The notes under the pieces were generated by a model. It was not told the origin of the DNA. It did no database searches and saw only the letters and a list, made by a program, of their open reading frames with translations. 64,000 nucleotides of DNA from Candidatus Poribacteria bacterium (lineage in GTDB: Bacteria; Poribacteria; WGA-4E; WGA-3G), in contig OZ240248.1 in the NCBI GenBank assembly GCA_965198235.1, positions 1,504,001-1,568,000 of the forward strand. The letters run 5' to 3'. Shown here piece by piece: positions 7,291-56,751 of this stretch. Numbering within the stretch: the first letter of the stretch is position 1; the number at the start of each line of letters is the position of its first letter. The translations under genes were made by a program, and so were the position numbers.

Positions 7291-7404
7291 AGGACTTACG
7301 CAATTTTCTTATGAGGATCTACGTGCCACACGCCGCCGACGAGGTTTCTTGGGGAAACACCCCAGCAAAAACACCTCGCCAGCAAAGGACACTGCGTAAG
7401 TCCT
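7291..7404. repeat. MITE-like element with 12-bp terminal inverted repeats
   Basis: AGGACTTACGCA...TGCGTAAGTCCT. Confidence 0.75.
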
Positions 7405-7634
7405 GTGGATATTAGGGTCATTTCAGAGGCATTCAGTTCCCCTGAAACGCTCTTGTGGGAGGGGTTTGTAACCCCGATTTTCCCGTAGATGGGGCACGAG
7501 GGTTCCCCAAAAATCCGAAATCCGTGTCATCCGCGATAATCCACGATCAGATCTCGCTGTTGCCGGAAACGTCCTCTATATCGGCACAGAACACCGTGGG
7601 CTCCTACGTTTATCGCTGCACAGCCTTTAATTTC

Positions 7635-7748
7635 AGGACTTACGCACAACGCGAATATTGAAGGATGGAAGGATGGGGACTTCCTCACGCTTCCAATCTT
7701 CCAGTCTTCTGATCCCGGAAGTAAACGAACGGATTTTGCGTAAGTCCT
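7635..7748. repeat. MITE-like element, same terminal inverted repeats, different interior
   Basis: AGGACTTACGCA...TGCGTAAGTCCT. The interior is an inverted relative of 386-440. Confidence 0.75.
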
Positions 7749-7816
7749 ATTGATGTTTTTTAGAACTGAATGCGGATTACCCTACCACCGAAGTTAATGT
7801 TCCCAATTTATTTTTA

Positions 7817-7845
7817 TTGACAGAAATATGCATTTTTGCTATATT
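7817..7845 (+). promoter_or_regulatory. Sigma70-type promoter for the 7965 gene
   Basis: TTGACA-17 nt-TATATT, with TG before the -10 box. Confidence 0.7.
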
Positions 7846-7964
7846 TTAGACAACGATTTCGCCAGAAATCGTCCTATTTGTGGAAGTCTGTCTTTGCAAG
7901 ACGGAAATGAATGTGGCACAGACGACTTAACTTGCGGAAAATCAACCAATAAAGGAGTAAAATA

Positions 7965-8789: not shown

Positions 8790-9045
8790 TCTCCTTCCTT
8801 GATATAGACTGATACCGTAAAATCAACCTGCGTTGCAGGGCGAGGTTACCGTACCTCAGTCTCCCTGCACCGCACTACTCATCTTTGTCGGGTGAGGTCA
8901 ATGCCTCACCCAACACCACTTTAGTTTTACGATGAGGCATCTTTGGTGATACAGGTACCTAAGCAATACCCTATAGCCTCGTCACTATGCTGTTGCTTGC
9001 GAATAAACGGCAACACAACCCTTTATGAAAGCGGAGGAGACATTC

Positions 9046-9873: not shown

Positions 9874-9881
9874 TATATAAT

Positions 9882-9921
9882 AGGGCGAGGGAGAAGGTTT
9901 TATCCAATCCCTCGCCCTTTT
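9882..9921 (+). terminator. Hairpin (REP-like) followed by a T-run after paralog 2; possible terminator
   Basis: AGGGCGAGGGA...TCCCTCGCCCT followed by TTTT. Confidence 0.45.
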
Positions 9922-10060
9922 CAATTCTTACGAATTTCATGCGGAGTCTCTGCGCATCACCAGAGCCGTTCAGTTCTTCTGTAGGAGCGATCTCCCGATC
10001 GCGACGCTTATCCACCGCCGCTGGCGAGGTTTCCTAACCTCGCCGATAAGGAGTCTATCC

Positions 10061-13472: not shown

Positions 13473-13652
13473 CCTAAGTTACTACTAATAAATTTTGGTG
13501 TTTTTGCTTGGGTGTTTCCCTGCGGATTTCGGCAAGGTTTTCAGGCACTTTCCCCACCCCGTAGGGGTGCTATGTCTGTAGAGAACGGTGTATTCAAGCG
13601 ACTGCACCCCGCAGGGGTGCTATGTCTATAAATAGGTGGCAATTTGCGTTAT
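13471..13652. repeat. REP-doublet element (second copy at about 20740-20895)
   Basis: Two CACCCCG(T/C)AGGGGTGCTATGT units bracketed by TAACC.AAGTT...AA.TTGCGTTA. Confidence 0.75.
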
Positions 13653-13662
13653 CCATAGATTA

Positions 13663-14082
13663 TCAGAGATCGAAAATAACCTGAGCAAACCAACTGTTAT
13701 CATTCCTTTGCACAACCTGTAGTTGATGATACGTGACGCTCTTAATTTCAGTATAAACCTCGTGTTTATCGAAATTTGCCGGTTCACCGTAAACCGTCGC
13801 TAATACCTCCGTTTCGCTGCACCGCTGGATGTCGGCGCGTTTAAAGAAGGTTTCTTTTGTCTCGTGCTGAAAGATGAGTTCATCGAGCCACGCCACAAAT
13901 AGGTCTTCCACAGACTCAGCAGTAAGGTGGATCTCGACCAAGTCTGTTTCATCGACAGTATCCACGACCGCTATCGTTTCGAAGAGTCCCTGTGCCGCGT
14001 TTTTCAGAAGCTCGGACAAACTTTTCCCCCTAACCAGCAGTCCCATATCAGCCGTATGTTCAAGGTATTCATAAGGTTTCAT
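13663..14082 (-). CDS. Archease (RtcB cofactor family)
   Basis: YEYLEHTAD at the N-terminus, EIKSVTYH...VIFDL at the C-terminus. GGAG precedes ATG 14082. Confidence 0.92.
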   Translation of the reverse strand: MKPYEYLEHTADMGLLVRGKSLSELLKNAAQGLFETIAVVDTVDETDLVEIHLTAESVEDLFVAWLDELIFQHETKETFFKRADIQRCSETEVLATVYGEPANFDKHEVYTEIKSVTYHQLQVVQRNDNSWFAQVIFDL

Positions 14083-14396
14083 GCAATTCTCCATCGTCAC
14101 GGTTTTTTTCCTCATCTCCGTAACATCATACCCCGAAAATCCGAACCTGTCAATTCTCAAATCTTCCTGTAGGAGCGACTTTTCCCAGAACCCACGCCCT
14201 ATCTAAACACTGATTCCTGTAGGAGGGGGGAAATTGAGGAAACGCCCTATCAATACGCAGAAATACCCAAGCAAAAACACTCCGATTCCTGACTGACTTC
14301 TGTGACATTTTTCCCTTGACTTTACATCCATTGTAGGCTATGCTATAATGTGGACTCTCTCGTAAAAAAAAGGCGTTTACCCTATAAAAAATAAAT

Positions 14397-16391: not shown

Positions 16392-16739
16392 GAGCGAGTG
16401 TTTTTGCTTGGGTGTTTCCCCATGCTCACGACTCCTTTCTCACTTGTGGAATTTCATAGCAACCTTCCAAGAATCCCCCTACAAAAATCGCCAAAAACCC
16501 AGTCGTAGCGCGGATTTACAACCCTTTTAATAATCTATCACTTTTCGGGTTTTGCTATGAAAACTGTGAAAATATTAGTAAAATCTGAAGATATATAGGC
16601 ACCTCGCGAAAAAAGACCCTGCCCCAAACTCACTACTGAAGTTTCCGATACCCAACACCCTTTCCTCCTACAACTAAAAACTGACAACTGATAACTGTTA
16701 ACTCATAAACCGAATACCTCCATCCAAAACACAAATCCG

Positions 16740-31619: not shown

Positions 31620-32140
31620 TCAGTTGTTGACTTTCAGTAGGACATAGGTTGGGTTGAGCGTCTGTGAAACCTATAGGTGTCAATTTGAGAAAGGACTTCA
31701 TCGTAGGTTGGGTTGAACGGGTATTATTGACACCCTAATAAGTCAGAGAAAATGATTTTTCATCCATACCCATTCCATCGCGGAGATACGGAGTGAAACC
31801 CAACACTCAAAACACGTCCATTTGCTCCGTAGGAGCGGCATGTCTATAGTTACCACGATAGGTGTGAGGCTATGTTTCTCCGTTTGTAGTAGGGCGATTC
31901 ATCGCCCGTTGCGAGGCACAAACGCGCAATGAATTGCGCTACTACAAACAAAATTATGTCTCATCCTCATTTATGGTGAATTATAGAAATAACTCTCACT
32001 GCGAGGCAATTTCAAGAGGAGCGAAAACTCAACACCCCGCTGGCGAGGTTTCCTAACCTCGCCTTACACTGTCTACGTAATTGTATATTTCACCATAGTT
32101 GATTTTCAGTTGTCAGAGGGAGGGAATTTGAATAAACAGA
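31620..32140. repeat. Intergenic pile-up of several REP-like palindromes between convergent genes
   Basis: TAGGTTGGGTTGA x2, AACCCAAC, GTAGTAGGGCGATTCATCGCCC, GCGCAATGAATTGCGCTACTAC (also at 63472), GGCGAGGTTTCCTAACCTCGCC (also at 10023). Confidence 0.75.
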
Positions 32141-35392: not shown

Positions 35393-38067
35393 AAACGTGC
35401 GAAGATGGGCAAAAGAAAACCGATCAAATTCCCAAAACCAGTCGCGACTTAACCAGAAACCTGACCGAAACGAAGTGGAGGGAAGAGCAGAAGCCCATAA
35501 TTAAAAAAGTGAAAATTCCTGAACCTTCACTTGTACTCCTCATTGGACCCTCAGGTTCCGGCAAATCTACCTTTGCTCGTAAGCATTTCAAGCCGACTGA
35601 GATTCTTTCGTCGGATTTCTGCCGAGGACTTGTTTCGGACGATGAAACCGACCAGACTGCAACAAACGATGCATTTGAAGTGCTGCGTTTCATCACCTCA
35701 AAACGGCTCGCTGCTGGGAAATTAACAGTCATTGATGCAACAAACGTCCAGCCAGAAGCGCGAAAACCTTTACTGGCACTCGCACGCGAATACCACTACT
35801 TAACAGTTGCCGTTGTGTTTAACATGTCTACAAAAATTTGTCAGGAAAGAAACGAGGCACGTCCCGACCGTAATTTAAAACCGCATGTCATTCGCCAGCA
35901 GAGCCAGCAACTTCGTCGATCACTGCGTAATCTCAAACGCGAGGGTTTTCAGCGCTTCGTCTATGTAATGTCCACGCCCGAAACTGTTGAAGCCATCCGT
36001 GTGGAACGACAGCCATTGTGGACGAACCGCACGGACGAGCAGGGACCGTTTGACATCATTGGTGATGTTCACGGCTGTTTTGATGAACTTGTTGAATTGC
36101 TCAAAGAACTCCGTTATGAAATCTCAACGCAACCAAACGGTGAAACTGTTGTTGAACCACCACAAAACAGGAAAGCAATTTTCGTCGGGGATTTTGTTGA
36201 CCGGGGTCCAAAGGTTGCCGAAGTGTTACGCTTGATTATGCGGATGCAAAAGACTGGCGCGGCTATCTGTGTGCCCGGGAATCATGACGTAAAACTCGTT
36301 CGTGCCCTACGCGGCAAAAATGTAAAGCCGACGCATGGACTGGCGGAATCGCTCTCTCAATTGGAGAAAACATCAACCCAATTTAAGACGCAAGTCGCAG
36401 AATTCCTGGATGGTTTGGTGAGCCACTACGTACTTGACAACGGAAAGCTGGTCGTCGCACATGCTGGAATGAAGGCAGAATTACAAGGCAGAGCATCGGG
36501 GCGCGTCCGAGAATTCGCACTCTATGGCGAAACGACTGGAGAAATCGATGAGTTTGGTTTGCCGATTCGGAGCAATTGGGCTGACGAGTATCGTGGTGAT
36601 GCGATGGTCGTCTATGGACACACGCCAGTTGTTGAACCGCAATGGGTAAACCGAACAATCAACATTGATACCGGATGTGTTTTTGGCGGTAAACTGACTG
36701 CGTTGCGATACCCTGAAAAAGAACTCGTGTCTGTCCGCGCACATCAGACCTATTATGAACCGACTAAGCCTCTTCTTGATGAAGTAGACAAACTACCTTC
36801 TGTCAAAACGCAGCCGTCCGGTGATATCCTAAACGTCAATGATGTGTTAGGAAAGCGCGTTATCAGCACCCGGTTACATCACAACGTAACAATCCGTGAA
36901 GAGAATGCAATAACCGCGCTTGAGGTGATGAGTCGTTTTGCTATAGACCCAAAATGGCTTATATACCTTCCACCGACAATGTCCCCAACCGAGACGACAA
37001 ACAGACTTGGTTTGCTTGAACATCCAACGGAGGCGTTCACTTATTATCGCAGACAGGGCGTATCCAACGTCATCTGGGAAGAAAAACACATGGGATCACG
37101 CGCTGTCGTTGTTGTTTGCCGAGATCCAGAAACCGCAAAAAAGCGGTTCGGTGTTACGGACAACACCCTTGGTGTCTGTTACACACGGACTGGCAGACGT
37201 TTCTTTGGCGATACTGCTATTGAAACCGAGCTGTTGAGACAGGTGAAAACTGCAGTAGACAGAGTCGGTTATTGGGAGACTCTCAATACAGATTGGATAT
37301 GTTTTGACTGTGAGCTAATGCCTTGGTCGGTTAAGGCTCAGCAGTTGTTACAGCAACAATATGCACCCGTGGGGGCATCGGCTCGTGTCGCTTTGCGAGA
37401 AGCGGTTGCATCCTTGGAAACCGCTGCTGAACGAGGTATTGAAGTAAATTCTATATTGAATGACTATCGTCAACGCACAGAAGCAGTGGACGAATACATC
37501 AACGCTTATCAGCAATACTGCTGGCAGGTCCAATCTATCGCGGACCTGAAACTGGCTCCGTTTCACCTACTCGCTACGGAAGGTACCGTGTACTTCAACA
37601 AAGACCATCTGTGGCACATGGAAATGCTTACGAAACTTTGTCAAAGTTCTCAGGACAACCTGTTGCTCGCAACTTCCTACGGGGTAGTTGATTTGACCGA
37701 TGACACAAACCAAGCTGAAGCAATCTGTCGATGGGAAGAACTCACTGAGCAAGGCGGTGAAGGCATAGTCATCAAGCCTCTGGATTTTATCGTTCAAGGC
37801 AAGCGAGGATTGATCCAGCCCGCTATAAAGTGTCGGGGTCGCGAATACCTGCGGATAATCTATGGACCTGAATATACATTGCCTCAAAACTTAGAACGCC
37901 TGCGTTCCCGTGGACTCTCTCACAAACGTTCCCTTGCACTTCGAGAGTTTGCATTGGGTGTTGAGGCACTTGAGCGTTTTGTACGTCGTGAACCGTTGTC
38001 TCGTGTTCACGAATGCACTTTTGGAATTCTGGCACTCGAAAGTGAGGCGGTTGATCCAAGGCTCTGA
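35389..38067 (+). CDS. pnkp: Polynucleotide kinase-phosphatase-ligase Pnkp
   Basis: Kinase GPSGSGKST; phosphoesterase DVHG/GDFVDRG/GNHD; ligase EEKHMGSRA, EGIVIKP, KCRGREYLR. GTG 35389 overlaps the hen1 stop (alternative start GTG 35509). Confidence 0.95.
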   Translation: MKTCEDGQKKTDQIPKTSRDLTRNLTETKWREEQKPIIKKVKIPEPSLVLLIGPSGSGKSTFARKHFKPTEILSSDFCRGLVSDDETDQTATNDAFEVLRFITSKRLAAGKLTVIDATNVQPEARKPLLALAREYHYLTVAVVFNMSTKICQERNEARPDRNLKPHVIRQQSQQLRRSLRNLKREGFQRFVYVMSTPETVEAIRVERQPLWTNRTDEQGPFDIIGDVHGCFDELVELLKELRYEISTQPNGETVVEPPQNRKAIFVGDFVDRGPKVAEVLRLIMRMQKTGAAICVPGNHDVKLVRALRGKNVKPTHGLAESLSQLEKTSTQFKTQVAEFLDGLVSHYVLDNGKLVVAHAGMKAELQGRASGRVREFALYGETTGEIDEFGLPIRSNWADEYRGDAMVVYGHTPVVEPQWVNRTINIDTGCVFGGKLTALRYPEKELVSVRAHQTYYEPTKPLLDEVDKLPSVKTQPSGDILNVNDVLGKRVISTRLHHNVTIREENAITALEVMSRFAIDPKWLIYLPPTMSPTETTNRLGLLEHPTEAFTYYRRQGVSNVIWEEKHMGSRAVVVVCRDPETAKKRFGVTDNTLGVCYTRTGRRFFGDTAIETELLRQVKTAVDRVGYWETLNTDWICFDCELMPWSVKAQQLLQQQYAPVGASARVALREAVASLETAAERGIEVNSILNDYRQRTEAVDEYINAYQQYCWQVQSIADLKLAPFHLLATEGTVYFNKDHLWHMEMLTKLCQSSQDNLLLATSYGVVDLTDDTNQAEAICRWEELTEQGGEGIVIKPLDFIVQGKRGLIQPAIKCRGREYLRIIYGPEYTLPQNLERLRSRGLSHKRSLALREFALGVEALERFVRREPLSRVHECTFGILALESEAVDPRL

Positions 38068-38430
38068 ACGTTCCCTTCCCGCTGATGAGGTGTTTTTGCT
38101 GGGGTGTTTCCCTTAGAGACCTCGCCCTCTGATGGCTACACATAATCCAATTAACCGAAAACCGGGGTCCCCACCCGTTACTGGGGAGGGGGTTTTTGCT
38201 TGGGGGTTTCTTTGATGGAACGAAGTGGAACGATTTAACCATCAACTCGACTCCGTTATAAATGTTAAAGCACGAGTTGATGGTTAACAGATTTAATAGT
38301 TAAAAAACCTTCGCATCCAAATTTTTTGATGAAAATCTCCGTAAACTGCAACAAATCCTACGAAATAGCGTTTTTTATACAACCAAGATCAAGCGATTAG
38401 GATGATAGATTGGAACCGCACATACGAGAA

Positions 38431-39345: not shown

Positions 39346-39363
39346 CGGGAGTATTTCTAAAAA

Positions 39364-43371: not shown

Positions 43372-43378
43372 TTAACAT

Positions 43379-44613: not shown

Positions 44614-44810
44614 GTTTTAAACTATTGAATCTGGTCACCGTTTTTTAATTTATTGGCTCCTGGGCGTTGTTCCACTACGTTTCACAACGGTTTTTGGTTA
44701 GGATAGGCACAAGACCCACTGCTACGCCCCCTTTCAACATTAAGAGGGCGTTTAACTTTACCGAAAACCGGGGTTCCCACCCGTTACTGGGAAGGGATAC
44801 TGGGGAGCGG

Positions 44811-44967
44811 GTTTTTGCTTGGGGTGTTTTTGCTTGGGGTTTTTGATAGGGTGTTTCCCTGCGTATTGATAGGGGTTTTTGCTTGGGTGTTTCTGTGGAT
44901 TTCTGTGGATTTCTGTGGATTTCTGCGTATTTCTGCGTATTGATAGGGTATTTCTTCGGATTTTTTC
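44811..44967 (+). repeat. Longest G/T-rich modular 'stutter' tract
   Basis: Units GTTTTTGCTTGGG, TTGATAGGG, TTTCTGTGGA x3, TTTCTGCGTA x2. Confidence 0.85.
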
Positions 44968-44986
44968 GATGGAACGAAGTGGAACG

Positions 44987-46300
44987 ATGAGCAAAAACTT
45001 AATAGGTAAAAAAACGTTTTGGGTGATGATGATTACCCTTGTTGGAATGGGGTTGAGTCTTCTCGTCCGGGTCCTATTGATTCCAAAACGCTTCGGATTC
45101 AGCGATACAGCGGACGCACTCACTACCGCATTGACGGTCGTGCTGTTAGTAGATACGATTGTCCGAGAGGGTGCTAAATTCAGTCTTGTTCCAGTCTTCG
45201 TCACACGCCAGAAGGAGATGACTCGCACGGAATACCAACGTTTCATGAATGGGCTCCTAATTTTGTTGCTTAGTGTTGGCTTCGGGATTTTCATTCTGAT
45301 TGAACTTTTCGCACCGTGGATAGCAGGCGGGTTGTTATGGAAATCGACTGTTGATGTACAGAGGGCTACGACACTGTTGCGATTTTGTGCCCCGCTCCTT
45401 ATCTTCGGATGTGGTAGCACGGTCCTGGGTGCTTTCCTAAACAGCCAGCAGCGCTTTAAAACGGTTGCACTCCGAAACGCTCTACCCGCTGGCACCGCGG
45501 CGTTTATATTTCTGCTCTTATGGAATACACAGAGCCTCGAAAACTGGGTGGCGATGGCATACGCGGGGGGCTTTATCGCGTACTTTGGATGGTTGTGCAT
45601 CGGGGTATATCGGACGGGGCACCGGTATGAACTTACAGGCGTTTCTGTGGACACGCTGCGTTCTTTGAAAAACACGGTTACCCTACCAACTCTCGGCTTC
45701 GGAATACGGCAAATCGTAAACCGCTTACTGGTTGAGGTGTACCTTGTCTCACAACTTGGAAGTGGCGCTATTACGCTCTATAAATCTGCCTTCCAAATCT
45801 TTTCAGCACTACAGACACTCATCGGGATCAGTATCGCAACAACCGGCTTGCCCGATATGGCGATCCACGACGCGGCAAACGATAAAATAGAATTAGGGCG
45901 TACACTCAACCGAAACGCACGCACGGCTATAATCATCGGATTCCCGGTAACCCTGGTCCTGTTGATATTTCACGGAAGAATCAGTTGGCTCTTGTATGGG
46001 AAAGGGACAATCGATCAAACGTCAGTTGAGTTGATAGGACAACTCCTCTTTTGGCTCAGCACGGGAATGATATTCTCCTGTCTGATACCTGTGTTGAATG
46101 CTGGACTCTACGCCCAAAAGGCGTACCGCGCTGTTTTCGCAAATATGGTCACGATGGCAGCCCTTAATTTTCTACTGGCGTACGGATTAATCGAAACATG
46201 GTGGCTTCTATCTGTCGCGTTGTCTGTATCAATCACCGCGCTTCTGGCTGTTGGGAACCTGACGTATCTCCTCCGAAGAACACAGGTGTCTTGGTTTTAG
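44987..46300 (+). CDS. MurJ/MviN-like (MOP superfamily) flippase
   Basis: About 12-13 TM segments, FG.S..ADA, VPVF, FAPW, LNSQQRF, SQLGSGAI. The start codon lies within a repeat. Confidence 0.8.
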   Translation: MSKNLIGKKTFWVMMITLVGMGLSLLVRVLLIPKRFGFSDTADALTTALTVVLLVDTIVREGAKFSLVPVFVTRQKEMTRTEYQRFMNGLLILLLSVGFGIFILIELFAPWIAGGLLWKSTVDVQRATTLLRFCAPLLIFGCGSTVLGAFLNSQQRFKTVALRNALPAGTAAFIFLLLWNTQSLENWVAMAYAGGFIAYFGWLCIGVYRTGHRYELTGVSVDTLRSLKNTVTLPTLGFGIRQIVNRLLVEVYLVSQLGSGAITLYKSAFQIFSALQTLIGISIATTGLPDMAIHDAANDKIELGRTLNRNARTAIIIGFPVTLVLLIFHGRISWLLYGKGTIDQTSVELIGQLLFWLSTGMIFSCLIPVLNAGLYAQKAYRAVFANMVTMAALNFLLAYGLIETWWLLSVALSVSITALLAVGNLTYLLRRTQVSWF

Positions 46301-46583: not shown

Positions 46584-47543
46584 ATGCACAGATTCAATCG
46601 TTTAAAAAGTGTCGCGGACTATCGCTATCTCATTGTAGGGGGCACGACAAAGGCGGCAACAACGTCCCTGTTCACCTACTTAGCGGATCATCCTGCTATT
46701 TGTGCTGCCACCTACAAAGAGACTCGGTTTTTTCTCAGCAGCAACTATCCGCTCCCATCGAAATACCGATATAAAGGTGATGTCGAAGAATACAACCTTT
46801 TGTTTTCTGATGCTGATGAAACGCAGTTTCGGATGGAATCGACGCCTGACTATCTGTATTGTGAGGAAGCCTGTGAGCGGATTGCCACATTGCTACCCTA
46901 TGCAAAGTTAGTCTTCAGTCTCCGTGAACCGATTTCAAGGTTAATCTCTTGGTATCGATTTGCAAAGCAAATTGGCAAATTACCACAAACTTTGAGTTTC
47001 GACGCGTATGTTGAATCGCTTTTTGCCGCTATGAATCGCCATGAAGAGACAGAAGAACAGCACTTGCAAACACTCCAGCAGGGGTGTTATACTATCTATC
47101 TGGAGCATTATTTTAACCGATTCAGTCCAGAGCGTATCCATACCCTCTTTTATGAGGAACTCGCGACACAACCGGCGGATACTATGGCAAAATTGTGTGA
47201 CTTCGCTGGCATTGATGCCGGTTTTTATGGCGATTACGGGTTTAAAGTAACGAATCGTACCCAACAGATGCGAAATTCTGAGTTACATCGGAAGTATAGA
47301 GACTTTCGATTTCGATTGCGACAATGGACACATAACAAGCCGATTATTCATATCCCATTGCGGGCAATCAAACGAACAATTGAGCCGCTCTATCTCCGAT
47401 TGAACGCGCAGACGGATGAGAAGACTCAGATGTCAGAAGAGACGAGGCACCGTTTAATCGATTATTACACGCCGGATGTTCAGGCTCTCGGCGAATTGAT
47501 TGGGAAACCGATACCATGGAAAACTTGGGGAAAATCCAGTTGA
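46584..47543 (+). CDS. PAPS-dependent sulfotransferase (heparan-sulfate-ST-like)
   Basis: 5'-PSB IVGGTTKAATT, KETRFF, ESTPDY, 3'-PB LREPISRLISWY. Confidence 0.9.
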   Translation: MHRFNRLKSVADYRYLIVGGTTKAATTSLFTYLADHPAICAATYKETRFFLSSNYPLPSKYRYKGDVEEYNLLFSDADETQFRMESTPDYLYCEEACERIATLLPYAKLVFSLREPISRLISWYRFAKQIGKLPQTLSFDAYVESLFAAMNRHEETEEQHLQTLQQGCYTIYLEHYFNRFSPERIHTLFYEELATQPADTMAKLCDFAGIDAGFYGDYGFKVTNRTQQMRNSELHRKYRDFRFRLRQWTHNKPIIHIPLRAIKRTIEPLYLRLNAQTDEKTQMSEETRHRLIDYYTPDVQALGELIGKPIPWKTWGKSS

Positions 47544-48466
47544 TGATTGTTGGCGCACAGAAGGCGGGAACCTCTTCGCTCCTCCGCTACTTGGCGCAGC
47601 ATCCCGATATCCACACGCATGCACAACCAGAGATGACGTTCTTCCTGCAGGCGCGTGAATACACGCGGGGATATGAATGGGCGTTTGTGAAGTACTTTAC
47701 TGGAGAGAATACCCACAGCGATATTAAGGATAAACACCTTATCGCGAAGAATGCGATGGTGATGCATACACCGGAAGTCATGCAACGGATTTATGAACAC
47801 AATCCTGAGATACACCTCGTTGTTCTTCTGCGTGAGCCTGTGGCACGGGCGTATTCTGCCTATTGGTGGGCTCGGCGGATAGGTTGGGAGAACATCAAAA
47901 CTTATGAAGAGGCACTTGCTGCCGAGGAAGCACGTCTGAGCGAAGACTGGTTTAAATGGCGACAATGTGCCTATCAGTACAACGGCATCTATTATCCACA
48001 TGTCAAAAATTTGATAACCCAATTTGGTGTGAGTCACGTGCATTGCGTCTTAACTGAGGATTTAAAGGATAACGCTGAAGCTGTCTGTCAGCAACTCTTT
48101 GATCGTATAGGTGTCAGCACCGATTTCAGTCCGACAATAGGTGAACGGCATAACCAAGCCACGCTGCCGCGTTCCGAAAAATTCAACTTTCTCTTTACAC
48201 AATTTCTGGCATCTCACAATCCGCTGAGAAAAGTCATTCGGAAATTGCTGCCGGATGCCACCGCTTATAAGTTGAGAAAAGCCGTTCTGGATTGGAACGA
48301 CAAGCCCAAGGAGAATATGGATTTGAAGAAACGCCCAAGCAAAAACACCCCGCCTCCGCTCAATCCGCAGACGCGTGAGCACCAGATGGCGTATTTTAAG
48401 CCATTTAACGAACAATTGGCTGAATTATTAGGCAGAGATCTCTCTTCATGGAATAGCGGTTTTTAA
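47516..48466 (+). CDS. PAPS-dependent sulfotransferase (heparan-sulfate-ST-like)
   Basis: IVGAQKAGTSSL...HPDI, EMTFF, LREPVARAYSAY, YFKPFNEQLAELLG. Confidence 0.92.
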   Translation: MENLGKIQLMIVGAQKAGTSSLLRYLAQHPDIHTHAQPEMTFFLQAREYTRGYEWAFVKYFTGENTHSDIKDKHLIAKNAMVMHTPEVMQRIYEHNPEIHLVVLLREPVARAYSAYWWARRIGWENIKTYEEALAAEEARLSEDWFKWRQCAYQYNGIYYPHVKNLITQFGVSHVHCVLTEDLKDNAEAVCQQLFDRIGVSTDFSPTIGERHNQATLPRSEKFNFLFTQFLASHNPLRKVIRKLLPDATAYKLRKAVLDWNDKPKENMDLKKRPSKNTPPPLNPQTREHQMAYFKPFNEQLAELLGRDLSSWNSGF

Positions 48467-48580: not shown

Positions 48581-49960
48581 ATGGTTTACTTTTTGACAGG
48601 ATACGTTGCTTTTGAAGAGTTTATACTGAAGTTTTTACCGGTTAGCGATGCTGTCTACTCCTATTTAAGATTCTTCGGCGAAATAATCATCTATACCGCT
48701 TTTGGAAGACTCGTTATCCATAAACTCCACAGAGGCATTCCCTTTGTCAAAACAGCGATCGACTTGCCAGTTATTGGTTTTTACAGCGTTGTCCTACTTT
48801 CAATGCTTATAAACAGGTCACCCTTGATAGGCAGCCTATACAACATCCGACCATTTGCTCGATATATTGTCCTTTTCTATCTCATCGCGAACTCTGCTCT
48901 ATCGGAGCGGCGAATTACAACCCTTTTACGCATAATTCTTGTTGTTGGGGTATTCCAACTTGTCGCCGGTATCGTTCAGTGGGTAGGCGGACCCGCCGCG
49001 TTCGATTTCTTCCTGCCTCGCGAATCAACACTCACCATCGGTGGGTTTACCAAAGAGTACAGATTGCTCGAACTCGGTAGAGAGATTGGCAGCGTCTATG
49101 GTACTTTGGGAGATACCGTGATTTACGGTGTCTTTATGATTCTTGTCCTTGTTATCTACCTTTCCCGTATTAGGCGACTGGAGTATCTGAATCTGCTCGG
49201 TGCAGCGATACTGTTTTTCTTTATAGCACGTTCATATTCACGCGCCGCAACCTTCTCCGCCCTTCTCGCGGGGGGTGCATGGTTCTTCTTCCACCACGGG
49301 TGGAAAAAAACCCTTCGCTTAGCATTAGCAACTGTCCTCATCTTCGGACTTCTATTGATAGTGGTGAACCCGTTCAACCTTGAATACATAAACCCGCGTA
49401 AAGCAAGGGTTGGGCTCGTCGGCAACGTAACAGGCGTATTTTCCGGGTCCTATGTCCGTGTCGCGCAGAAGCAGCGGCTGGGGGCGTTGATCGGAAATGT
49501 TCCAACAGTCCTTGTTAACAAACCAATCTTAGGTTATGGTGCCGACCAGAACAGCACGATTGAAAGACTTAATATGAGCAAACGCTCATTCCTCCTCAAA
49601 GTCCTCAGTAAGAGCGGCTTCAAGGATGTGTATTGGGTAGCAATCCTCTGTTTCTACGGCATATTGGGACTGGGCTTCTTCGCTCTGATATTTTACCAAC
49701 TCTTTCGCGCTGCGCTGCGGCTTTACAGAAGGTCTATCAGTTCATCATCTGCTATAGAGAGGAGTACCCCTATCTCAGGCGTGACACAACGTATCGCAAT
49801 TATCATGCTCTGCCTCGTCGCCGTTACTGTATTTCTACTTTTCTTTAGTCGAACCCTTGAATTTCGAGGCTATGGATTCTACTTCTGGCTCTGTGCCGGT
49901 CTCATGTTTGCGAGTGATAGATCGCTTCCAACCTATAGACCTCTGAGGATAACATTATGA
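48581..49960 (+). CDS. O-antigen ligase/Wzy-like polymerase
   Basis: Polytopic, GTLGD, SYSRAA, periplasmic loop with PILGYG, YGILG; polysaccharide-locus context. Confidence 0.75.
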   Translation: MVYFLTGYVAFEEFILKFLPVSDAVYSYLRFFGEIIIYTAFGRLVIHKLHRGIPFVKTAIDLPVIGFYSVVLLSMLINRSPLIGSLYNIRPFARYIVLFYLIANSALSERRITTLLRIILVVGVFQLVAGIVQWVGGPAAFDFFLPRESTLTIGGFTKEYRLLELGREIGSVYGTLGDTVIYGVFMILVLVIYLSRIRRLEYLNLLGAAILFFFIARSYSRAATFSALLAGGAWFFFHHGWKKTLRLALATVLIFGLLLIVVNPFNLEYINPRKARVGLVGNVTGVFSGSYVRVAQKQRLGALIGNVPTVLVNKPILGYGADQNSTIERLNMSKRSFLLKVLSKSGFKDVYWVAILCFYGILGLGFFALIFYQLFRAALRLYRRSISSSSAIERSTPISGVTQRIAIIMLCLVAVTVFLLFFSRTLEFRGYGFYFWLCAGLMFASDRSLPTYRPLRITL

Positions 49961-51738
49961 ATAGCAGTCAGCAGTCAGCAGTCAGCACAGACTCGGCCAC
50001 GCCTACTGATACAAAGCTTTTGAAGCGCGTGGGAGAGTCTGAGCAAGAGGGGGTAGGTTCACCAGAAAACCTCTTTGCTGATGGCTTCCGGCAGCCGATA
50101 GTTTCCGATAGCCAATTTGTGCAAGGCGTAAATACACATTTTCAGTTTGTGAGTGCTTATCGCACTTTTAGAGAGTTTTGTCGAAAGTATTGTCTCGGAT
50201 TGCTGGGGGTGATAATACTGCTTCTGGCAATCGGTTGTCGAACTCAAAAATCGCTTCCTGATACACTGTATTTTGAAATTGACACGCGTAATGGACAACC
50301 GCTCCGTCAGGCACTCTACGGCTTCAATTCAAACATGATGAGCGGCGATTACGGTTATCTTGATGACGATTTTGTCGCCTTGACTAAGGCTCTCGCACCA
50401 AAGACCTTACGATTTCCCGGCGGGACAGTTGGGAACTTCTATCATTGGGAACCTGGCGGCTTTTTTGAGAACGAAATGGCATCAACCCTCAATACGAAAC
50501 TTAATAAACGAAATAAGGGAAATTACGTTAAACTTCAAAGAAGGCGAAAGGGTAAAATCGTTTTCGACGACTTTATGCAACTATGCAACACGCTGAATAT
50601 AACGCCTGTTATTGTGGTAAACTTATGGACAGGCAGTCCAGAGGAGAGCGCGGCGTGGGTCCGCTATGCTAAGGACAAAGGATATCAGGTTACGCATTGG
50701 GAACTCGGTAACGAATACTATCTGCCACATTACCTCAACAAATACCCAACCGCTGCAGCTTACATAGCGGAAGCCAAGAAACATGCTGCAGCGATGAAGG
50801 CCGTCAACCCAGATATAAAGGTATCCGTCTGTGCTACTCCGATCGCCTTCCACAAAGAGGGCTGGTTGGTAAAAATACAGCAACGGAAATGGGATAAGGA
50901 CCTCGCAGCCGATACCAGTTTTTACGATGCTTATACCGTTCATGTCTATGCCTACAAAGCTGTCCGGAAAAAAAAGATGGAGGAGATGCGAGGCTACCTC
51001 ATGGGATGGATTCACTTCGATGTCGCAGAGGCAATTGACTACTATGAAAAATTGTTTCCAAATAAGGAGATGTGGATAACCGAGTGGAACATCGCCAACC
51101 CCGCAAACCGAGTCGCGAATACACAACTCCATGCAATGTACGTAGGTGATTTTTTTCTGAAAATATTAGCGATCCGGAACGTCACGCAAGCGAATTTTCA
51201 CGTCATCGCCGGTCCCGGCAAAGGATTTCCAGTGTTTTCACCTATAACACCTGCGACACCCGGAACGTTCTGGAAATATGGGGGTGAACCAGAATCCGAT
51301 TTCGGTGGTACTATTCAGCGTGCTGTCTATCCTGCTTTTCAACTCATCGGTGAAGCATTCACCGAGACAGACACACAGTTCACCCTTTCAATTCAGAACC
51401 AGCCCCTTCTGGCAGGAGCCATGGAATACGGAGAAAAACAGATGCCTGGTATTCAGGCGCAAGCCATCGGCGGGAAGGCTGCAGAACATCTGACTATCCT
51501 CGTCAGCAATCGCACAGGTGAGCAATACGAACCGCAACTCCTAATTGACGGTAAACGGTACAAGGGCAGTATCAACTACCGTTATGTTGCTGATGAAAGG
51601 CTCAATGCAACGAACGGTGGGAACGCCGAAATGGAGGGATCTGGCAAAATTGAAGTCCGTATCCAAAAATGGCGTGGGAAGTCAACGAAACTCGTCATCC
51701 CTAAAAATAGTTTTGGCATTCTCAAGATAAAGAGATAG
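49957..51738 (+). CDS. Clan GH-A glycoside hydrolase lipoprotein (GH79/GH51-like)
   Basis: Lipobox AIGC, LRFPGG, WELGNE (acid/base), WITEWN (nucleophile). The first ~55 codons look repeat-derived, so the start may be later. Confidence 0.75.
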   Translation: MNSSQQSAVSTDSATPTDTKLLKRVGESEQEGVGSPENLFADGFRQPIVSDSQFVQGVNTHFQFVSAYRTFREFCRKYCLGLLGVIILLLAIGCRTQKSLPDTLYFEIDTRNGQPLRQALYGFNSNMMSGDYGYLDDDFVALTKALAPKTLRFPGGTVGNFYHWEPGGFFENEMASTLNTKLNKRNKGNYVKLQRRRKGKIVFDDFMQLCNTLNITPVIVVNLWTGSPEESAAWVRYAKDKGYQVTHWELGNEYYLPHYLNKYPTAAAYIAEAKKHAAAMKAVNPDIKVSVCATPIAFHKEGWLVKIQQRKWDKDLAADTSFYDAYTVHVYAYKAVRKKKMEEMRGYLMGWIHFDVAEAIDYYEKLFPNKEMWITEWNIANPANRVANTQLHAMYVGDFFLKILAIRNVTQANFHVIAGPGKGFPVFSPITPATPGTFWKYGGEPESDFGGTIQRAVYPAFQLIGEAFTETDTQFTLSIQNQPLLAGAMEYGEKQMPGIQAQAIGGKAAEHLTILVSNRTGEQYEPQLLIDGKRYKGSINYRYVADERLNATNGGNAEMEGSGKIEVRIQKWRGKSTKLVIPKNSFGILKIKR

Positions 51739-51912
51739 TCGCGGATAGTAGGGGTTTGCTTGGGGTTTTTGCTTGGGGTTTTTGATAGGGTGTTTCTGCG
51801 GATTTCTCCGGGTCTTGTGCCTACCCTCTTAAAAACCGTACATCTTCCCAGTCGCGTCGAAATTCACCTCACACCATAGTGGAACGATGCCCAAGTTTTA
51901 ATAGTTAAAAGA

Positions 51913-52929: not shown

Positions 52930-53343
52930 CTCTGGTCACCGTTCCACTACGTTTCACGGTGGGATCTGGTTAATTCCAACGCGATTGCGGAGATGTACGG
53001 TTTTTATAGTAAAGCCCGAAAATATGTTGACATTTCAATGAGCAACAATCCCGCATACTTCCTCGCTGGCGAGGTTTCCTTGGGGAAATCTGCAGAAATA
53101 CCGGATTTAGTCTGGGAATAGACGAAATCCGTTCCTTGTATTACATTGCAAAGACCCCTATCAAAAACACCTCGCCAATGTATAGATAATTGTGGGCTTT
53201 ACTATAAAAGGGTAGGAAAACCCAAGACCTGAGAAACACCCAAGCAAAACCCCTACTACCGCTCATAATTCAGAGGCGGTTAGACTTAACCGAAAACCAT
53301 CGTGGAACGTAGTGGAACGATGCTCATATTCAATAAATAAAAA

Positions 53344-54345
53344 ATGATTGCACAAATAGATCCGCTCTACATCAAAACACGCCCGACGAAAGTCCTAACA
53401 CGCCTCATGAGTTATGCCCTCTTCGAGGGGCGTCCTGTAACCACAAAGGGTCGCTGGATAAATCCGCTCGTCTTTTCTCTTTTGAAGAGGTTCGCTGCGA
53501 ACAATAACAGATATGAATCTGTTGAAAAACCGATCTTCATCTTGGGGACCGGACGCAGTGGCACTACGATACTCGGTATTGTGCTGTCTATGCACAGGGA
53601 AATCGGTTACCTTAACGAACCGAAGGCTATGTGGCACCTCATCCATCCGCATGAAGACATTATCGGTAACTACAGCCAAGCCGATGCAAAATATCGTCTC
53701 ACCGCCGAAGATGCGACAAACGAAATGCGTCAACGCGCTTCCCAGATGTTCGGTGCTTATTTGACGGCAACCCGCTCAAAGCGCCTTGTCGATAAGTATC
53801 CGGAACTCATCTTCAGGGTAGATTTCGTTCGTGCACTGTTTCCTGATGCTCGTTTCATCTTTCTCGTCCGCAATGGGTGGGATACGTGCCATTCAATTGC
53901 GACATGGTCGAAGCGACTCGGTGCCCAGATCAATAGCGAGAAGCACGATTGGTGGGGTGTAGATGACCGAAAGTGGAGGCTCTTAGTTGAACAGCTCGTT
54001 AAAACAGATCCTATTTTCTCTCAGACCGTTGATGAGGTTAAACATATCGATCGACATCTCGATAGAGCAGCCGTGGAGTGGATAATCACTATGCGGGAGG
54101 GGCTTCATTTAATGCGAACCTCACCTGACTATGTTCATCTCGTCCGTTTTGAGGATCTGACATCACATCCGGACGAAACGCTCTCGGCTTTATGTGCCTT
54201 CTGTGAACTTCCAAAGGACACAACATTCCAAGAGTATGCTCGACAGACCTTGCATCCAGTCCCTACTAAAGAATCTTTTGATGTGCATCCAAAAATCGCT
54301 CCTCTTTTCCATGATACCATGAGAGAAATGGGGTATAATACTTAG
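53344..54345 (+). CDS. Sulfotransferase (Sulfotransfer_3-like)
   Basis: PIFILGTGRSGTT, LNEP, VDKYP, FPDARFIFLVRNG.D..S, RFEDL. Confidence 0.9.
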   Translation: MIAQIDPLYIKTRPTKVLTRLMSYALFEGRPVTTKGRWINPLVFSLLKRFAANNNRYESVEKPIFILGTGRSGTTILGIVLSMHREIGYLNEPKAMWHLIHPHEDIIGNYSQADAKYRLTAEDATNEMRQRASQMFGAYLTATRSKRLVDKYPELIFRVDFVRALFPDARFIFLVRNGWDTCHSIATWSKRLGAQINSEKHDWWGVDDRKWRLLVEQLVKTDPIFSQTVDEVKHIDRHLDRAAVEWIITMREGLHLMRTSPDYVHLVRFEDLTSHPDETLSALCAFCELPKDTTFQEYARQTLHPVPTKESFDVHPKIAPLFHDTMREMGYNT

Positions 54346-54377
54346 ATAGACTTTTAGAGATCGGACTCATTCGCGTA

Positions 54378-56465
54378 ATGCACAAAAACCCAGTTAGACA
54401 AACACAAAGACATTCCTTAGCAACACATCCTTTTACCCGGCGGGACTTTCTCTCAACCAGTTTGAAAGCAGGCGCAACTGCCTTCACGACTGGACTATTA
54501 CCGAAATGGAATGCTGATGCGCAAGGGCAGTACAACGTGTTATTCATCGTTGTGGATGACTTGCGACCTTTGCTTGGATGTTATGGGCATCCAGAGATAC
54601 ACACTCCTAACATTGATAGGCTCGCCGGACGAGGAACAGTTTTCAACCGGGCATATTGTCAGTATCCGCTCTGTAGTCCGTCCCGGGCTTCGATACTAAC
54701 AGGGTTACGGACAGAAACAACAGGTGTGCTGAATAATTCACAGGATTTTCGAAAAAAATTGCCTGATGCGATTACACTTCCTCAGCATTTCAAAGCACAA
54801 GGGTATCATACCCAATCCGTGGGTAGAATCGCACACCTCCCGCGACTTCAGGATGATGGAAATTCATGGAGTGTTGCATCATGGAGACCGATATGGGTGC
54901 CTTTCGATATAGAAGCTACCCCGTCTTGGCAAGCACTTGATGTTGAGGATGATGATCTCAGAGATGGTAAAACTGCAAGACGAGCAGTTCGGGTACTCAA
55001 ACAAATTAAGGACCAACAATTTTTCCTTGCTGTCGGATTTTACAAACCGCATTTGCCCTTTAAGGCACCGCGGAAATATTTTGAGTTATACGATACCCAA
55101 ACTTTTGACTTGCCTGCTTCGTCTATACCACCTAAAGATGCACCTGCTAAAGCACTCACTAATTGGAATGAGATTAGAGCTTATCAAGATCTCCCTTCCG
55201 GAAACTCATCGCTCTCTGATGCTAAGACTTTAGAGTTAATTCGCGCGTACGCCGCAGCCACGAGTTATACGGATGCACAAATTGGTCGTGTATTAACACA
55301 GTTGGATGTTCTCGGTCTCGCTGAGAATACTGTGATCGTTTTTTGTGGTGACCATGGGCATCATCTTGGTGAACACGGAATATGGGGAAAGCAAACCCTT
55401 TTTGAGGTTTCTCTCAGATCTCCTTTGATTGTCAGCATCCCGCAGCAACAACGTTCAGAGACTGAAGCTTTGGCTGAACTCGTTGACGTTTATCCGACGT
55501 TATGTGACGCTTGTCAACTTTCAACACCACCACAGTTAGAAGGCATAAGTCTGATGCCGGTCATTGAGCAACCGACTCGCCCGTGGAAAACTGCCGTTTT
55601 TAGCCAATTCGGTGGGGGTGCGCATGGTGGTATCTCTATCCGGACGGAACGGTATAGATATACTGAATGGGGACAAAACAGTAGTCATGGTGTGGAACTC
55701 TACGATTATGAAGCTGATCCAGATGAGACCTTTAATATCGCGAGTCTACCAGAAAACGCAGAACTCCTTGCCCATCTCAGCGAACGACTTCACGCGGGAT
55801 GGCAAGCGGCTTTGCCGGACACGCATCAGCGGATTCCTGTTCCGCAAACATTACCTTGGGATATAAATAATGATGGGATTGTTGACATCCGAGATCTCGT
55901 CCTAATTTCAAGCAGTTTTGGTGTGGAAACGCCAGGACATCCAAAAGTTGATGTAAACAAGGATGGTAAAGTTAACATTCTTGACTTGATTCTGGTTGCT
56001 GCGCATTTCGGTGAATCCAGCACTCCTGCTGCTCCGTCGACACACGTTAGCATGGAACATTTTGACTTAGTGGAACAATGGCTTACTGAAGCACGTCTCG
56101 CGAATGATGGTTCTCTTGCCTTTCAGCAAGGCATTCTTGCTTTAGAACGTCTAATGAATACGACGATCCCCATGGAAACGGTGCTTCTGGCGAACTATCC
56201 GAATCCTTTTAATCCGGAGACGTGGATACCTTACGATTTGGCTGAAGATGCGGAGGTCAAGATCCACATCTATAACGTGAAAGGTGAATCTATCCGCCAG
56301 TTATCGTTGGGTTTTCAAAGTGCTGGTGCCTATCGGAATCGGTCTCGTGCAGCGTATTGGGATGGTCGAAATGCCATAGGTGAATCTGTAGCAAGTGGGG
56401 TCTACTTTTATACGCTCCGTGCAGGACAAACTAAAGCCACACGCCAGATGGTAGTTTTCAAATAA
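54378..56465 (+). CDS. Tat-exported sulfatase (iduronate-2-sulfatase-like) with dockerin-like pair and C-terminal sorting-like domain
   Basis: TRRDFL twin-Arg, NVLFIVVDDLRP, CSPSRASILTG, FFLAVGFYKPHLPF, DHG, NYPNPFNPETWIPY. Confidence 0.9.
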   Translation: MHKNPVRQTQRHSLATHPFTRRDFLSTSLKAGATAFTTGLLPKWNADAQGQYNVLFIVVDDLRPLLGCYGHPEIHTPNIDRLAGRGTVFNRAYCQYPLCSPSRASILTGLRTETTGVLNNSQDFRKKLPDAITLPQHFKAQGYHTQSVGRIAHLPRLQDDGNSWSVASWRPIWVPFDIEATPSWQALDVEDDDLRDGKTARRAVRVLKQIKDQQFFLAVGFYKPHLPFKAPRKYFELYDTQTFDLPASSIPPKDAPAKALTNWNEIRAYQDLPSGNSSLSDAKTLELIRAYAAATSYTDAQIGRVLTQLDVLGLAENTVIVFCGDHGHHLGEHGIWGKQTLFEVSLRSPLIVSIPQQQRSETEALAELVDVYPTLCDACQLSTPPQLEGISLMPVIEQPTRPWKTAVFSQFGGGAHGGISIRTERYRYTEWGQNSSHGVELYDYEADPDETFNIASLPENAELLAHLSERLHAGWQAALPDTHQRIPVPQTLPWDINNDGIVDIRDLVLISSSFGVETPGHPKVDVNKDGKVNILDLILVAAHFGESSTPAAPSTHVSMEHFDLVEQWLTEARLANDGSLAFQQGILALERLMNTTIPMETVLLANYPNPFNPETWIPYDLAEDAEVKIHIYNVKGESIRQLSLGFQSAGAYRNRSRAAYWDGRNAIGESVASGVYFYTLRAGQTKATRQMVVFK

Positions 56466-56751
56466 GACAGGTTGTCAGTTTTTTAATTGTGGTCTCCTTG
56501 GCTGTGCTTCATTACATTTCGCACAGGTTTTCGGTGGATCGCATGTTCCTTTTTAGAGCGGAACTAGAGTTTCACTCTAAACCATCGTGAAACGAAGTGG
56601 AACGATGCCCAAGAGTCCATAGTTAAAAAAGGATTCTTATTCTGCTTAACAGCCACCAGAGCCGCCACAAATTAACCATAAACCTGCCTGAAACGAAGTG
56701 GAGGGGTTTTTGCTTGGGTGTTTCTTTGCCCAGGAGTCCATAGTTAAAAAA

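Follow-up and report, generated by a model that had tools for sequence, protein, structure and literature searches.

What are the G/T-rich repeats of variable length that interrupt otherwise unrelated palindromic repeats in a 64,000-nt stretch of a Candidatus Poribacteria genome (contig OZ240248.1 of assembly GCA_965198235.1, positions 1,504,001 to 1,568,000 of the forward strand; hereafter, the window), and how do they spread? An initial annotation of the window, made from its letters alone, had listed twelve such repeats, here termed tracts, and had proposed that they are laid down by iterative templated synthesis at nicked hairpins. Upon analysis of the genome holding the window (G000) and of its relatives (other G numbers), we conclude that the tracts are copies of a family of very small, non-coding, strand-specific insertion elements, which start directly 3′ of a short host motif, are present or absent at orthologous sites, obey a strict internal module grammar and, in four closed genomes of relatives, are oriented with replication.

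A minimal copy reads GTTTTTG, CTT or ATA, GGG, T(G/A)TTTC and two to five pyrimidines, often with a purine last. All twelve tracts of the initial annotation were confirmed in position and strand, seven of them lying on the plus and five on the minus strand. They are given here together with three empty copies of their host repeats, where H numbers denote host repeat families and a slash marks a junction between host and tract.

7351..7372, minus strand: basic tract (a single head and a single tail unit), lying in the loop of the GGCGAGGT..ACCTCG hairpin repeat, host H1.
13500..13530, plus strand: tract of head, short tail and one CCTGCGGATTTC tail unit.
14227..14278, minus strand: compound tract of head, tail, TGCGTATTGATAGGG re-entry unit, tail and CTCAATTTC, in host H4 (GGAATCGGAG..CCCTCCTACAG).
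16400..16421, plus strand: basic tract in the loop of a GTAG-type repetitive extragenic palindromic (REP) hairpin, GTAGGAGCGAG..CTCACGA, host H2.
38092..38112, plus strand: basic tract in an H1-type hairpin.
38192..38213, plus strand: basic tract in host H10 (CCCGTTACTGGGGAGG/../GATGGAACGAAGTGGAACGAT).
44811..44967, plus strand: compound tract of 157 nt in a second H10 copy, at the position matching that of the preceding tract, with six GGG-ending and eight TTTC-ending units.
48325..48346, minus strand: basic tract inside the sulfotransferase open reading frame (ORF) at 47516-48466, adding 21 nt in frame.
51754..51808, plus strand: compound tract of three heads, tail and TGCGGATTTC, in host GTAGGG/../GGTCTTGTGCCTACCC.
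53082..53168, minus strand: tract in an H1 hairpin, with a hairpin element of ~47 nt nested in it after GTCTTTG.
53232..53251, minus strand: basic tract (GGTTTTGCTTGGGTGTTTCT) in a GTAG..GGTCTTG host repeat.
56706..56727, plus strand: basic tract occupying the main target site in H5, the gene-leader repeat of ~100 nt (GAAGTGGAGG/../GCCCAGGAG..AAAAAAATG).
10023..10044, no strand assigned: empty H1 hairpin, GGCGAGGTTTCCTAACCTCGCC.
32042..32063, no strand assigned: empty H1 hairpin of the same sequence as that at 10023 (GGCGAGGTTTCCTAACCTCGCC).
44701..44725, minus strand: empty copy of the GTAG..GGGTCTTGTGCCTA host repeat.

Scanning with chains of k-mers, which were taken from the twelve tracts by coordinate only, returned the same twelve loci of the window and two short chance intervals without a head unit, and the list is therefore complete. 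The GTTTTTGCTKGGG core, with up to one mismatch allowed, was matched 13 times in the window against 0.37 expected (35-fold), a number that none of 100 shuffles reached. All twelve tracts directly follow a G-rich host run and close with TTTC and pyrimidines. In ten of them the first unit reads GTTTTTG, then CTT, CTG or ATA, then GGG; the other two start with GTTTGCTTGGGG (51754) and GGTTTTGCTTGGG (53232). The filled and empty host copies proved to be as described, with H1 hairpins empty at 10023 and 32042 and filled at 7340, 38086 and 53068, and the GTAG host repeat empty at 44701 and filled at 51748. The feature at 53082-53168 is indeed a tract but not a single unbroken one, carrying the nested hairpin element (CAATGTAATACAAGGAAYGGATTT..CCCAGAC..AAATCCG) at 53095-53150 on the minus strand, directly after GT(C/T)TTTG. 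At least three further copies of this ~47-nt element occupy the same position of other tracts, and so does a different element of ~35 nt (CGAATCAAC..GCATTCCGTG).

The target was defined by comparing, in G000, host families that each have filled and empty copies (H1 to H7, H9 and H10), among them H1 (GGCGAGGTT..AACCTCGCC), H2 (GTAGGAGCGAG..CTCGCGA), the H6 REP of the type associated with REP-associated tyrosine transposases (RAYTs), the hairpins H7 and H10, and the ~100-nt gene-leader repeat H5/H9. Tracts start directly 3′ of host RRG(K), in many cases at a loop edge within another palindromic repeat. In the flanks of 257 head-first tracts, position −1 was T or G in 96%, −2 was G in 95%, −3 was G or A in 99% and −4 was G or A in 88%; this host flank matches the internal unit junction GGG/G(T)GTTTTTG. 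Several features put forward in the initial annotation held, namely a polarity fixed relative to the G-run target, mosaic iteration and the lack of terminal inverted repeats, and the 3′ end is ragged, with TTTC followed by two to five pyrimidines and often by a purine (A/G). No target duplication was seen in the host families compared and no terminal inverted repeats were found, these being the two features that define a MITE, or miniature transposable element with inverted repeats.

Insertion into the host repeats was thus borne out, but not clean insertion, given that one to five host bases (T, TT, CG, GCG and a few more in hairpin loops) are replaced, as evident from host families and ortholog pairs. 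Inverted repeats of at least 6 bp flank 59 of the 279 tracts of G000, whereas 20 random draws of intergenic positions averaged 17.4 and never exceeded 26. The proposed nicked hairpins therefore stand in so far as hairpin flanks are over-represented (17 expected) and fall short in that only 59 tracts have them, implying that many targets are not hairpin loops; hairpin targets are favoured, not required. Phase-shifted entries occur where the host mimics another module, as in CTGCG/T-run-GCTTGGG...TGCGTA/TTG in G045 and G012 and in GGCGAGGTT/GCTTGGG in G000, and could instead be later deletions. The H5 leader repeat (for instance at 56640-56760 and 44960-45020) has a covarying 5′ hairpin, ..ACGG.. 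and ACCGAACCGCAAGGWAWAATTAAAAA directly before ATG start codons, and from this layout looks as if it supplies the ribosome-binding region.

Mobility was assessed in syntenic 20-kb regions from 11 genomes of the genus, from which six spacers holding eight window tracts were cut by flanking-gene anchors; anchoring varied by spacer (up to 11 relatives), and the 56706 spacer was anchored in one relative only. None of the seven intergenic window tracts in these six spacers had a tract at the same place in the anchored relatives. The comparison of empty and filled alleles that the initial annotation had suggested thus turned out in favour of insertion, the orthologous sites in sister species being empty, and the six spacers compared were completely turned over between species. 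Three ortholog pairs differ by a tract alone: G045 reads CTGCAACAA/CGGC/ACAGACG where G012 has 73 nt replacing CGGC; G018 reads CTGCG/CCG/TTGTTGCAGG where G045 has 40 nt replacing CCG; and, in tract orientation, G006 reads CAGG/CG/GATTT where G024 has 24 nt replacing CG. The sulfotransferase tract at 48325 gives KPKENMDLKKRPSKNTPPPL in the G000 protein, as against KPQKSMESVPPPL in G014 (hand translation). This in-frame tract is common to G000, G006 and G024, where it has diverged by point changes, and was not seen in the other eight genomes compared. In the G018 orthologue of 48310-48350, an in-frame GTAG-type REP hairpin sits at the codon position of the tract, so that the same sulfotransferase loop is the target of two different small repeats.

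Within G000, 26 of the 183 copies of the H5 family carry a tract of 24 to 177 nt at one site. Mapped on a host tree built with the tract removed, which is noisy as it rests on about 100 nt, the filled state required 22 changes compared with 24.6 ± 1.1 in shuffled data (22 or fewer in 4.6% of shuffles), and the filled copies are spread across several clearly different H5 subfamilies. The near-shuffled number of changes implies that the H5 insertions are largely independent. Tracts of 22, 32, 42 and 157 nt occupy one position in four H10 copies, two of the tracts differing by one TTCGGATTTC unit. A joint bypassing the 157-nt tract (44807 to 44973) in Logan contigs was rejected as an allele, as the same contigs hold a 38176-to-44771 joint and the bypassing joint hence reflects another host-repeat copy.

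The smaller contig of G000 (C2, 43.9 kb) is a second haplotype of positions 775,767-815,774 of the main contig (C1), with 99.3-100% identity, housekeeping genes and two indels; one basic tract common to both haplotypes has the identical sequence (n = 1). The C1-only indel is a small repeat of 41 nt that occupies the loop of a leader-repeat hairpin, and the C2-only indel is a 230-nt block comprising an H5 leader repeat with two tracts, which interrupts a reading frame left intact in C1. Many spacers across the genus are, in addition, filled with heptamer-like tandem repeats (CTGACAA, CTGATAA and CAGTCAG types), for example at 49960-50000 of the window, which in style recall the short tandemly repeated repetitive (STRR) heptamers of heterocystous cyanobacteria.

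The G000 assembly (5.17 Mb in the two contigs, GC 48%, 96.3% complete) contains 269 matches to the GTTTTTGCTKGGG core, and TTTGCTTGGG with its complement is its commonest 10-mer (294 copies). The k-mer-chain scan of this genome yielded 577 intervals, 279 of them with a head unit and the remainder mostly chance. Tract lengths range from 17 to 201 nt; 145 of the 279 loci consist of one head and one tail, with a basic copy of about 20-23 nt. The tract strand is composed of 33% G, 48% T, 13% C and 6% A, has no internal inverted repeat and is not palindromic. On the main contig, 223 of 276 loci fall outside the 79% of sequence taken up by long-ORF proxies.

All 24 genomes of the genus that were searched contain an exact 19-mer of the family (6 to 106 copies; 133 in G000), as does none of 16 genomes from three other families of the order; outside the genus, a looser pattern gave just two single, differently spelled, chance-like matches. 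Among the 80 records listed of at least 116 with the exact 19-mer, all were metagenome-assembled genomes of Candidatus Poribacteria except one labelled 'uncultured bacterium'. A metagenome scan with a 19-mer of the re-entry unit returned four matches, one a true compound tract and three due to chance, and a separate metagenome scan for the unique right flank of the 157-nt tract gave no match. Five matches were obtained in viral contigs, two being true tracts in Poribacteria-like repeats and three representing one unrelated gene. As far as searched, the family is confined to one genus of Candidatus Poribacteria. Among the papers listed by literature searches for repeats, MITE, REP or RAYT in Poribacteria, none dealt with Poribacteria repeats, which is a weak negative.

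The grammar of the tracts became apparent upon splitting all 279 of them into head, short-tail, long-tail and re-entry units. The head unit, (G)(T)GTTTTTG-CTT/ATA-GGG, comes first in 261 tracts, a short tail in 13 and a mid-cycle unit in two, with three unparsed; the 5′ start, initially described as fixed, is thus nearly so but not absolute, and phase-shifted entries occur. A head was followed by another head in 120 cases, by a short tail ([TCG][GA]TTTC) in 254, by the end in 26 and by a long tail in none. The short tail led to a long tail (e.g. TGCGGATTTC) 100 times, to a re-entry unit (TGCGTATTG-CTT/ATA-GGG) 38 times and to the end 161 times; the long tail led to a further long tail 67 times, to a re-entry unit 12 times and to the end 86 times; and the re-entry unit led to a head 17 times and to a short tail 32 times. 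The step from tail to head was seen only twice. This unit-transition graph, the construction of which the initial annotation had called for, describes a strict walk through four modules in cyclic order, L1 ((G)TGTTT), R1 (TTG-CTT/ATA-GGG), R2 ((T)TC) and L2 (Y-G-Y-G-(G/T)-A), where GGG is followed by L1 only, TTTC by L2 or the end only, and switching takes place within T-runs. On this reading of the sequences, long tracts appear as walks on a 21-nt cycle, TGTTTC-TGCGTA-TTGCTTGGG, with two T-run shortcuts, so that the head would be the cycle minus CTGCGTA and the long tail the cycle minus TTGCTTGGGTG.

The 110 compound tracts comprise 104 distinct sequences and 72 distinct unit orders, which implies that copy-and-paste of whole tracts is rare; those few that are identical are found in H7 hosts amplified together. 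The L2 module (TGCGKA) is missing from the basic copy, and slippage alone can therefore not turn a basic copy into a long form. Heads were exact in 84% of compound and 82% of basic tracts, with no trend with length, so that length is no sign of age. GATTTC units recur with a 10-nt periodicity. Simple self-nesting of whole elements was rejected, as head and tail counts are often unequal and the tail-to-head step is close to zero. Dominant spellings differ by species: among the matches listed and by rough counts, GGGCGTTTC tails are common in G018 and rare in G000, and GCTGGGG heads are common in G009 and G005 and rare in G000. By the same rough counts, GGGC-type tails make up about a third of the matches listed for G018 and CTG heads about a quarter of those for G009, compared with a few percent in G000. 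Such species-specific spellings may reflect master templates or concerted evolution.

Strand polarity was analysed in four closed relatives (G006, G014, G018 and G024), using complete lists of matches and symmetric replichores drawn from dnaA. In the pooled data, the ratio of plus to minus tracts was 156:47 to the right of dnaA and 61:113 to the left (odds ratio 6.1, Fisher p = 1.6e-16), and each genome was significant alone, with p from 0.02 to 2e-6. The best minus-to-plus switch points lay 0.05, 0.09, 0.26 and 0.45 Mb from dnaA. Expressed again as plus to minus, G018 (dnaA at 0.559 Mb) showed 51:1 between 1.17 and 2.9 Mb; G006 (dnaA at 2.784 Mb) 3:26 at 1.08-2.76 Mb and 12:0 at 2.83-3.28 Mb; G024 (dnaA at 2.179 Mb) 8:29 as far as 1.81 Mb, 14:0 at 1.92-2.98 Mb, 3:14 at 2.98-3.53 Mb and 11:4 at 3.54-4.93 Mb; and G014 (dnaA at 2.349 Mb) 14:1 at 4.13-4.87 Mb and 3:19 in the stretch that runs from 4.96 Mb past the start of the sequence to 1.33 Mb. 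The dnaA gene lies on different strands among these relatives and the rule of plus tracts on the right is unchanged, so that synteny does not account for it. Genes run with replication from dnaA, and less strictly so than tracts. In G006, the H5 leader repeat shows a weaker polarity of the same sense (18:27 to the left of dnaA and 20:7 to the right, counted over the 100 listed of 136 matches). Since tracts are on the top strand to the right and on the bottom strand to the left of dnaA, their G/T-rich strand corresponds to the lagging-strand template, that is, to the sequence of the nascent leading strand. A strand flip near dnaA is as expected of a single-strand, replication-coupled process.

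The enzymatic route proposed in the initial annotation, with a reverse transcriptase (RT) or telomerase-like activity, was not corroborated: RVT_1 had no match in G000, and the distributions of RT and RAYT do not track the tracts. RVT_1 was detected in 19 of 31 genomes of the genus, G000 being among the 12 without, and closed genomes lacking it contain 149 (G006), 33 (G007), 224 (G014), 179 (G018) and 225 (G024) cores. Prim-Pol likewise had no match in G000. Six Y1_Tnp (PF01797) genes are present in G000, three IS605-type with tnpB and three RAYTs flanked by H6-type REPs. The G000-type RAYT was found in 18 of 24 genomes of the genus versus 9 of 16 outside it, with none at E ≤ 1e-10 in the closed G024. 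The Y1 family as a whole occurs in G000 and all 24 genus genomes and in 12 of the 16 tract-free ones; closed G024, with its 225 cores, has weak or interrupted Y1 matches only. An enzyme borne on a plasmid was considered for C2 and rejected, as this contig is the C1 haplotype with housekeeping genes and no candidate.

How the copies arise can be stated only tentatively. The account we lean towards, at somewhat less than an even chance, is fork-coupled, microhomology-primed copying of single-stranded DNA with stutter; we infer priming, direction of synthesis and fork coupling from the pattern of the tracts. Copies would be made on single-stranded DNA at replication forks, where a host 3′ end in RRG would pair by a microhomology of 3-4 nt with the CCC of a template complementary to the tract and be extended. 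Repeated re-alignment at GGG and T-runs would cause the stutter and hence the variable length, and the new strand would rejoin the host a few bases downstream. Another tract copy, an RNA or a single-stranded DNA could serve as template. That the RRG(K) flank mimics the GGG/GT junction and that the strand flips near dnaA both lend support to priming by the host 3′ end. A canonical RT is an unlikely polymerase. In a bolder and less probable form, which we consider unlikely, this would be bacterial mobile DNA without a fixed length, synthesised at forks from a cyclic template of ~21 nt by telomerase-like re-alignment, with an enzyme other than a known RT, possibly a host polymerase; the element would then be a template and a grammar and no bounded piece of DNA. 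A bounded, two-ended transposon does not agree with a ragged 3′ end, shifted entries and long copies that are nearly all unique.

Several points weigh against copying at the fork. Neither a template nor an enzyme was found, and a template switch of the host polymerase alone does not explain why just this sequence is copied. G000 itself has no dnaA polarity (85:67 right, 49:43 left, p = 0.69), and its tract strand was not significantly related to local GC skew or gene-strand majority at four window sizes. The runs test in this genome was borderline (109 runs vs 121.8 ± 7.7), with local blocks only (32:10 at 1.0-1.6 Mb, 10:21 at 1.6-2.3 Mb), and the orientation relative to flanking gene proxies was weak (97 co-oriented vs 69). 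The GC skew of C1 is weakly positive on the plus strand for the most part, with the cumulative minimum at 0.37, the maximum at 4.05 and dnaA at 0.9987 Mb; there is no two-arm skew pattern, and the gene-strand bias, taken in 250-kb bins, is patchy. Two synteny probes point to large inversions between the chromosomes, the G000 region at 1.90 Mb being inverted in G018 and collinear with G006, and that at 3.00 Mb inverted relative to G006, G014 and G018. Polarity could also come from orientation-dependent survival, and lengths may have been set at birth or changed in situ. Adjacent long-tail variants were identical in 32 of 76 cases compared with 23.0 ± 3.5 by chance, a modest sign that fits local duplication. 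Finally, Y1 HUH genes were present in 25 of 25 tract-bearing genomes searched, and a transposase route therefore remains viable.

Such a route, in which a host Y1 enzyme cuts a minimal top-strand element and pastes it 3′ of RRG(K) on the lagging-strand template, as IS200/IS605 or REP/RAYT systems do, with length varying later, appears doubtful, although it would explain why insertion is strand-specific, falls 3′ of a short motif and duplicates no target sequence, as well as the over-representation of hairpin-rich targets and the tract at the foot of the RAYT-flanking H6 REP. The polarity, moreover, has the geometry given for IS608 and ISDra2 (PMC6006769), namely on the lagging-strand template. 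The element, however, is not palindromic and has no subterminal hairpins, it closes in a ragged 3′ end and can enter in a shifted phase, and the tail-to-head junction expected of a circle was nearly never seen. In addition, neither the Y1 genes, common as they are in tract-free genomes, nor the RAYT type track the tracts, the 225 cores of G024 go with weak or interrupted Y1 only, and the IS605 copies of G000 appear, from a reading of their flanks, to insert after TTA with no G-run. We judge it less probable still that a few founder forms inserted ordinarily and were then remodelled in situ by minisatellite slippage at GGG, TTTC and TT microhomologies and by ectopic gene conversion among the ~280 copies, with polarity reflecting stability or selection that depends on orientation. 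All units are tandem, with direct repeats of 2-4 nt at their boundaries, and the excess of identical neighbouring long tails, the H10 series of different lengths at one position and the identical compound tracts within co-amplified H7 copies would suit such remodelling. The lack of L2 in the basic copy does not, nor does the fact that point changes are no commoner in long than in short tracts; the grammar is far stricter than random microhomology slippage would produce (no step from head to long tail and two from tail to head), filled H5 copies are scattered over host lineages, and the one tract common to the C1 and C2 haplotypes is identical.

The strict form of the model in the initial annotation, in which an RT or telomerase-like enzyme repeatedly copies a dedicated template RNA onto nicked hairpins, is very improbable. 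The product is telomere-like, pairing of the host G-run with a CCC alignment region is conceivable and the grammar is cyclic; yet RVT_1 is absent from the largely complete G000 and from five closed tract-bearing genomes, no Rfam family reached its gathering score in the window, and no template locus could be distinguished from ordinary copies. It is scarcely credible that the tracts have no mobility at all and represent a low-complexity assembly artefact or a motif that arose in place and functions as a signal of the protein-binding or uptake type. The long tracts are of low complexity and the periodicity of the GATTTC units could suit a DNA-binding protein, but the same compound architecture recurs in a metagenome contig and in other species that were assembled independently, orthologous sites form clean pairs of presence and absence, and tracts lie inside unrelated repeats and, in one case, within a gene, in frame. 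A derivation by nested deletion from a larger MITE or insertion sequence was rejected, since no element bounded by tract halves was found and the split heads hold only other tiny hairpin elements.

The genes found are not those of a cyanobacterium and include type-9 sorting tails, dockerins, sulfatases, and WD40 and LDL-B repeats. Two genes of the window are abutted by tracts, one for an archease (13663-14160, minus strand) and one for a PNKP ligase-domain protein of 898 aa (33977-38067, plus strand), the latter directly 3′ of an ORF of 471 aa. Together, archease and PNKP may form an RNA-repair module, and they are otherwise unrelated to the tracts.

From one sister species of this uncultured sponge symbiont to the next, almost no intergenic spacer escapes rewriting by the tracts and the repeats that host them, which sometimes lengthen proteins and will confuse the assembly and annotation of such genomes. 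The mechanism behind mobile repeats of ~20 nt in cyanobacteria has, to our knowledge, been unsettled since 2008, and the present family offers three handles on it, the RRG(K) target rule, the cyclic grammar and the replication-linked polarity in closed genomes. The grammar reads like the record of a copying reaction, and the polarity points to single-stranded DNA at the fork. If spreading indeed proceeds by primed, stuttering synthesis and not by cut-and-paste, it would constitute a new route by which DNA spreads genome-wide without a dedicated transposase.

Among known systems, the small dispersed repeats SDR1-8, reportedly described by Elhai et al. in 2008 (Genome Res 18:1484) from Nostoc punctiforme and related heterocyst-forming cyanobacteria, come close. 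They are reported to be likewise non-coding repeats of the ~20-27 nt class in high copy number, nested in other repeats or hairpins, present or absent at orthologous sites and without a known enzyme, matching a basic copy of 20-23 nt and 269 core matches. The tracts belong to another phylum and probably differ in sequence; we know of no report of a cyclic grammar with copies of 20-200 nt or of replication-linked polarity in SDRs.

A lagging-strand-template geometry for IS608 and ISDra2 was reportedly described by Ton-Hoang in 2010. With IS200/IS605 elements the tracts share strand-specific insertion 3′ of a short target without duplication. An orientation on the lagging-strand template, which is the target of IS608 and ISDra2 (PMC6006769), was seen for the tracts of G006, G014, G018 and G024 and not for those of G000. 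Unlike these elements, tracts have neither subterminal hairpins nor a fixed right end, measure 20 nt versus at least 100 nt and are internally iterated, and Y1 genes do not separate tract-bearing from tract-free genomes. Like REP and REPIN sequences (PMC3116915, PMC3733652), tracts are short, intergenic, abundant and lineage-specific, and REPs (the GTAG-type H2 and the RAYT-flanking H6) host many of them; unlike these sequences, a tract is no palindrome, carries no GTAG or CGTC tag, forms no doublets and is not tracked by the presence of RAYT.

Telomerase repeats and the rolling or iterative cDNA of bacterial RTs resemble the tracts in being G/T-rich, with units ending in a G-run and a re-aligned, G-ended primer; in contrast to such products, the tracts are chromosome-internal, consist of four modules with two switch points instead of one unit, and occur in G000 without an RT. 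Quasipalindrome template-switch mutagenesis, for which the Lovett laboratory reportedly found a leading-strand bias in E. coli, is also hairpin-associated and replication-strand biased, with a nascent 3′ end copying elsewhere by microhomology. Whereas that process copies the palindrome's own arm, here one foreign family is copied into hundreds of unrelated sites, and what is new in it is the module grammar together with the strand polarity.

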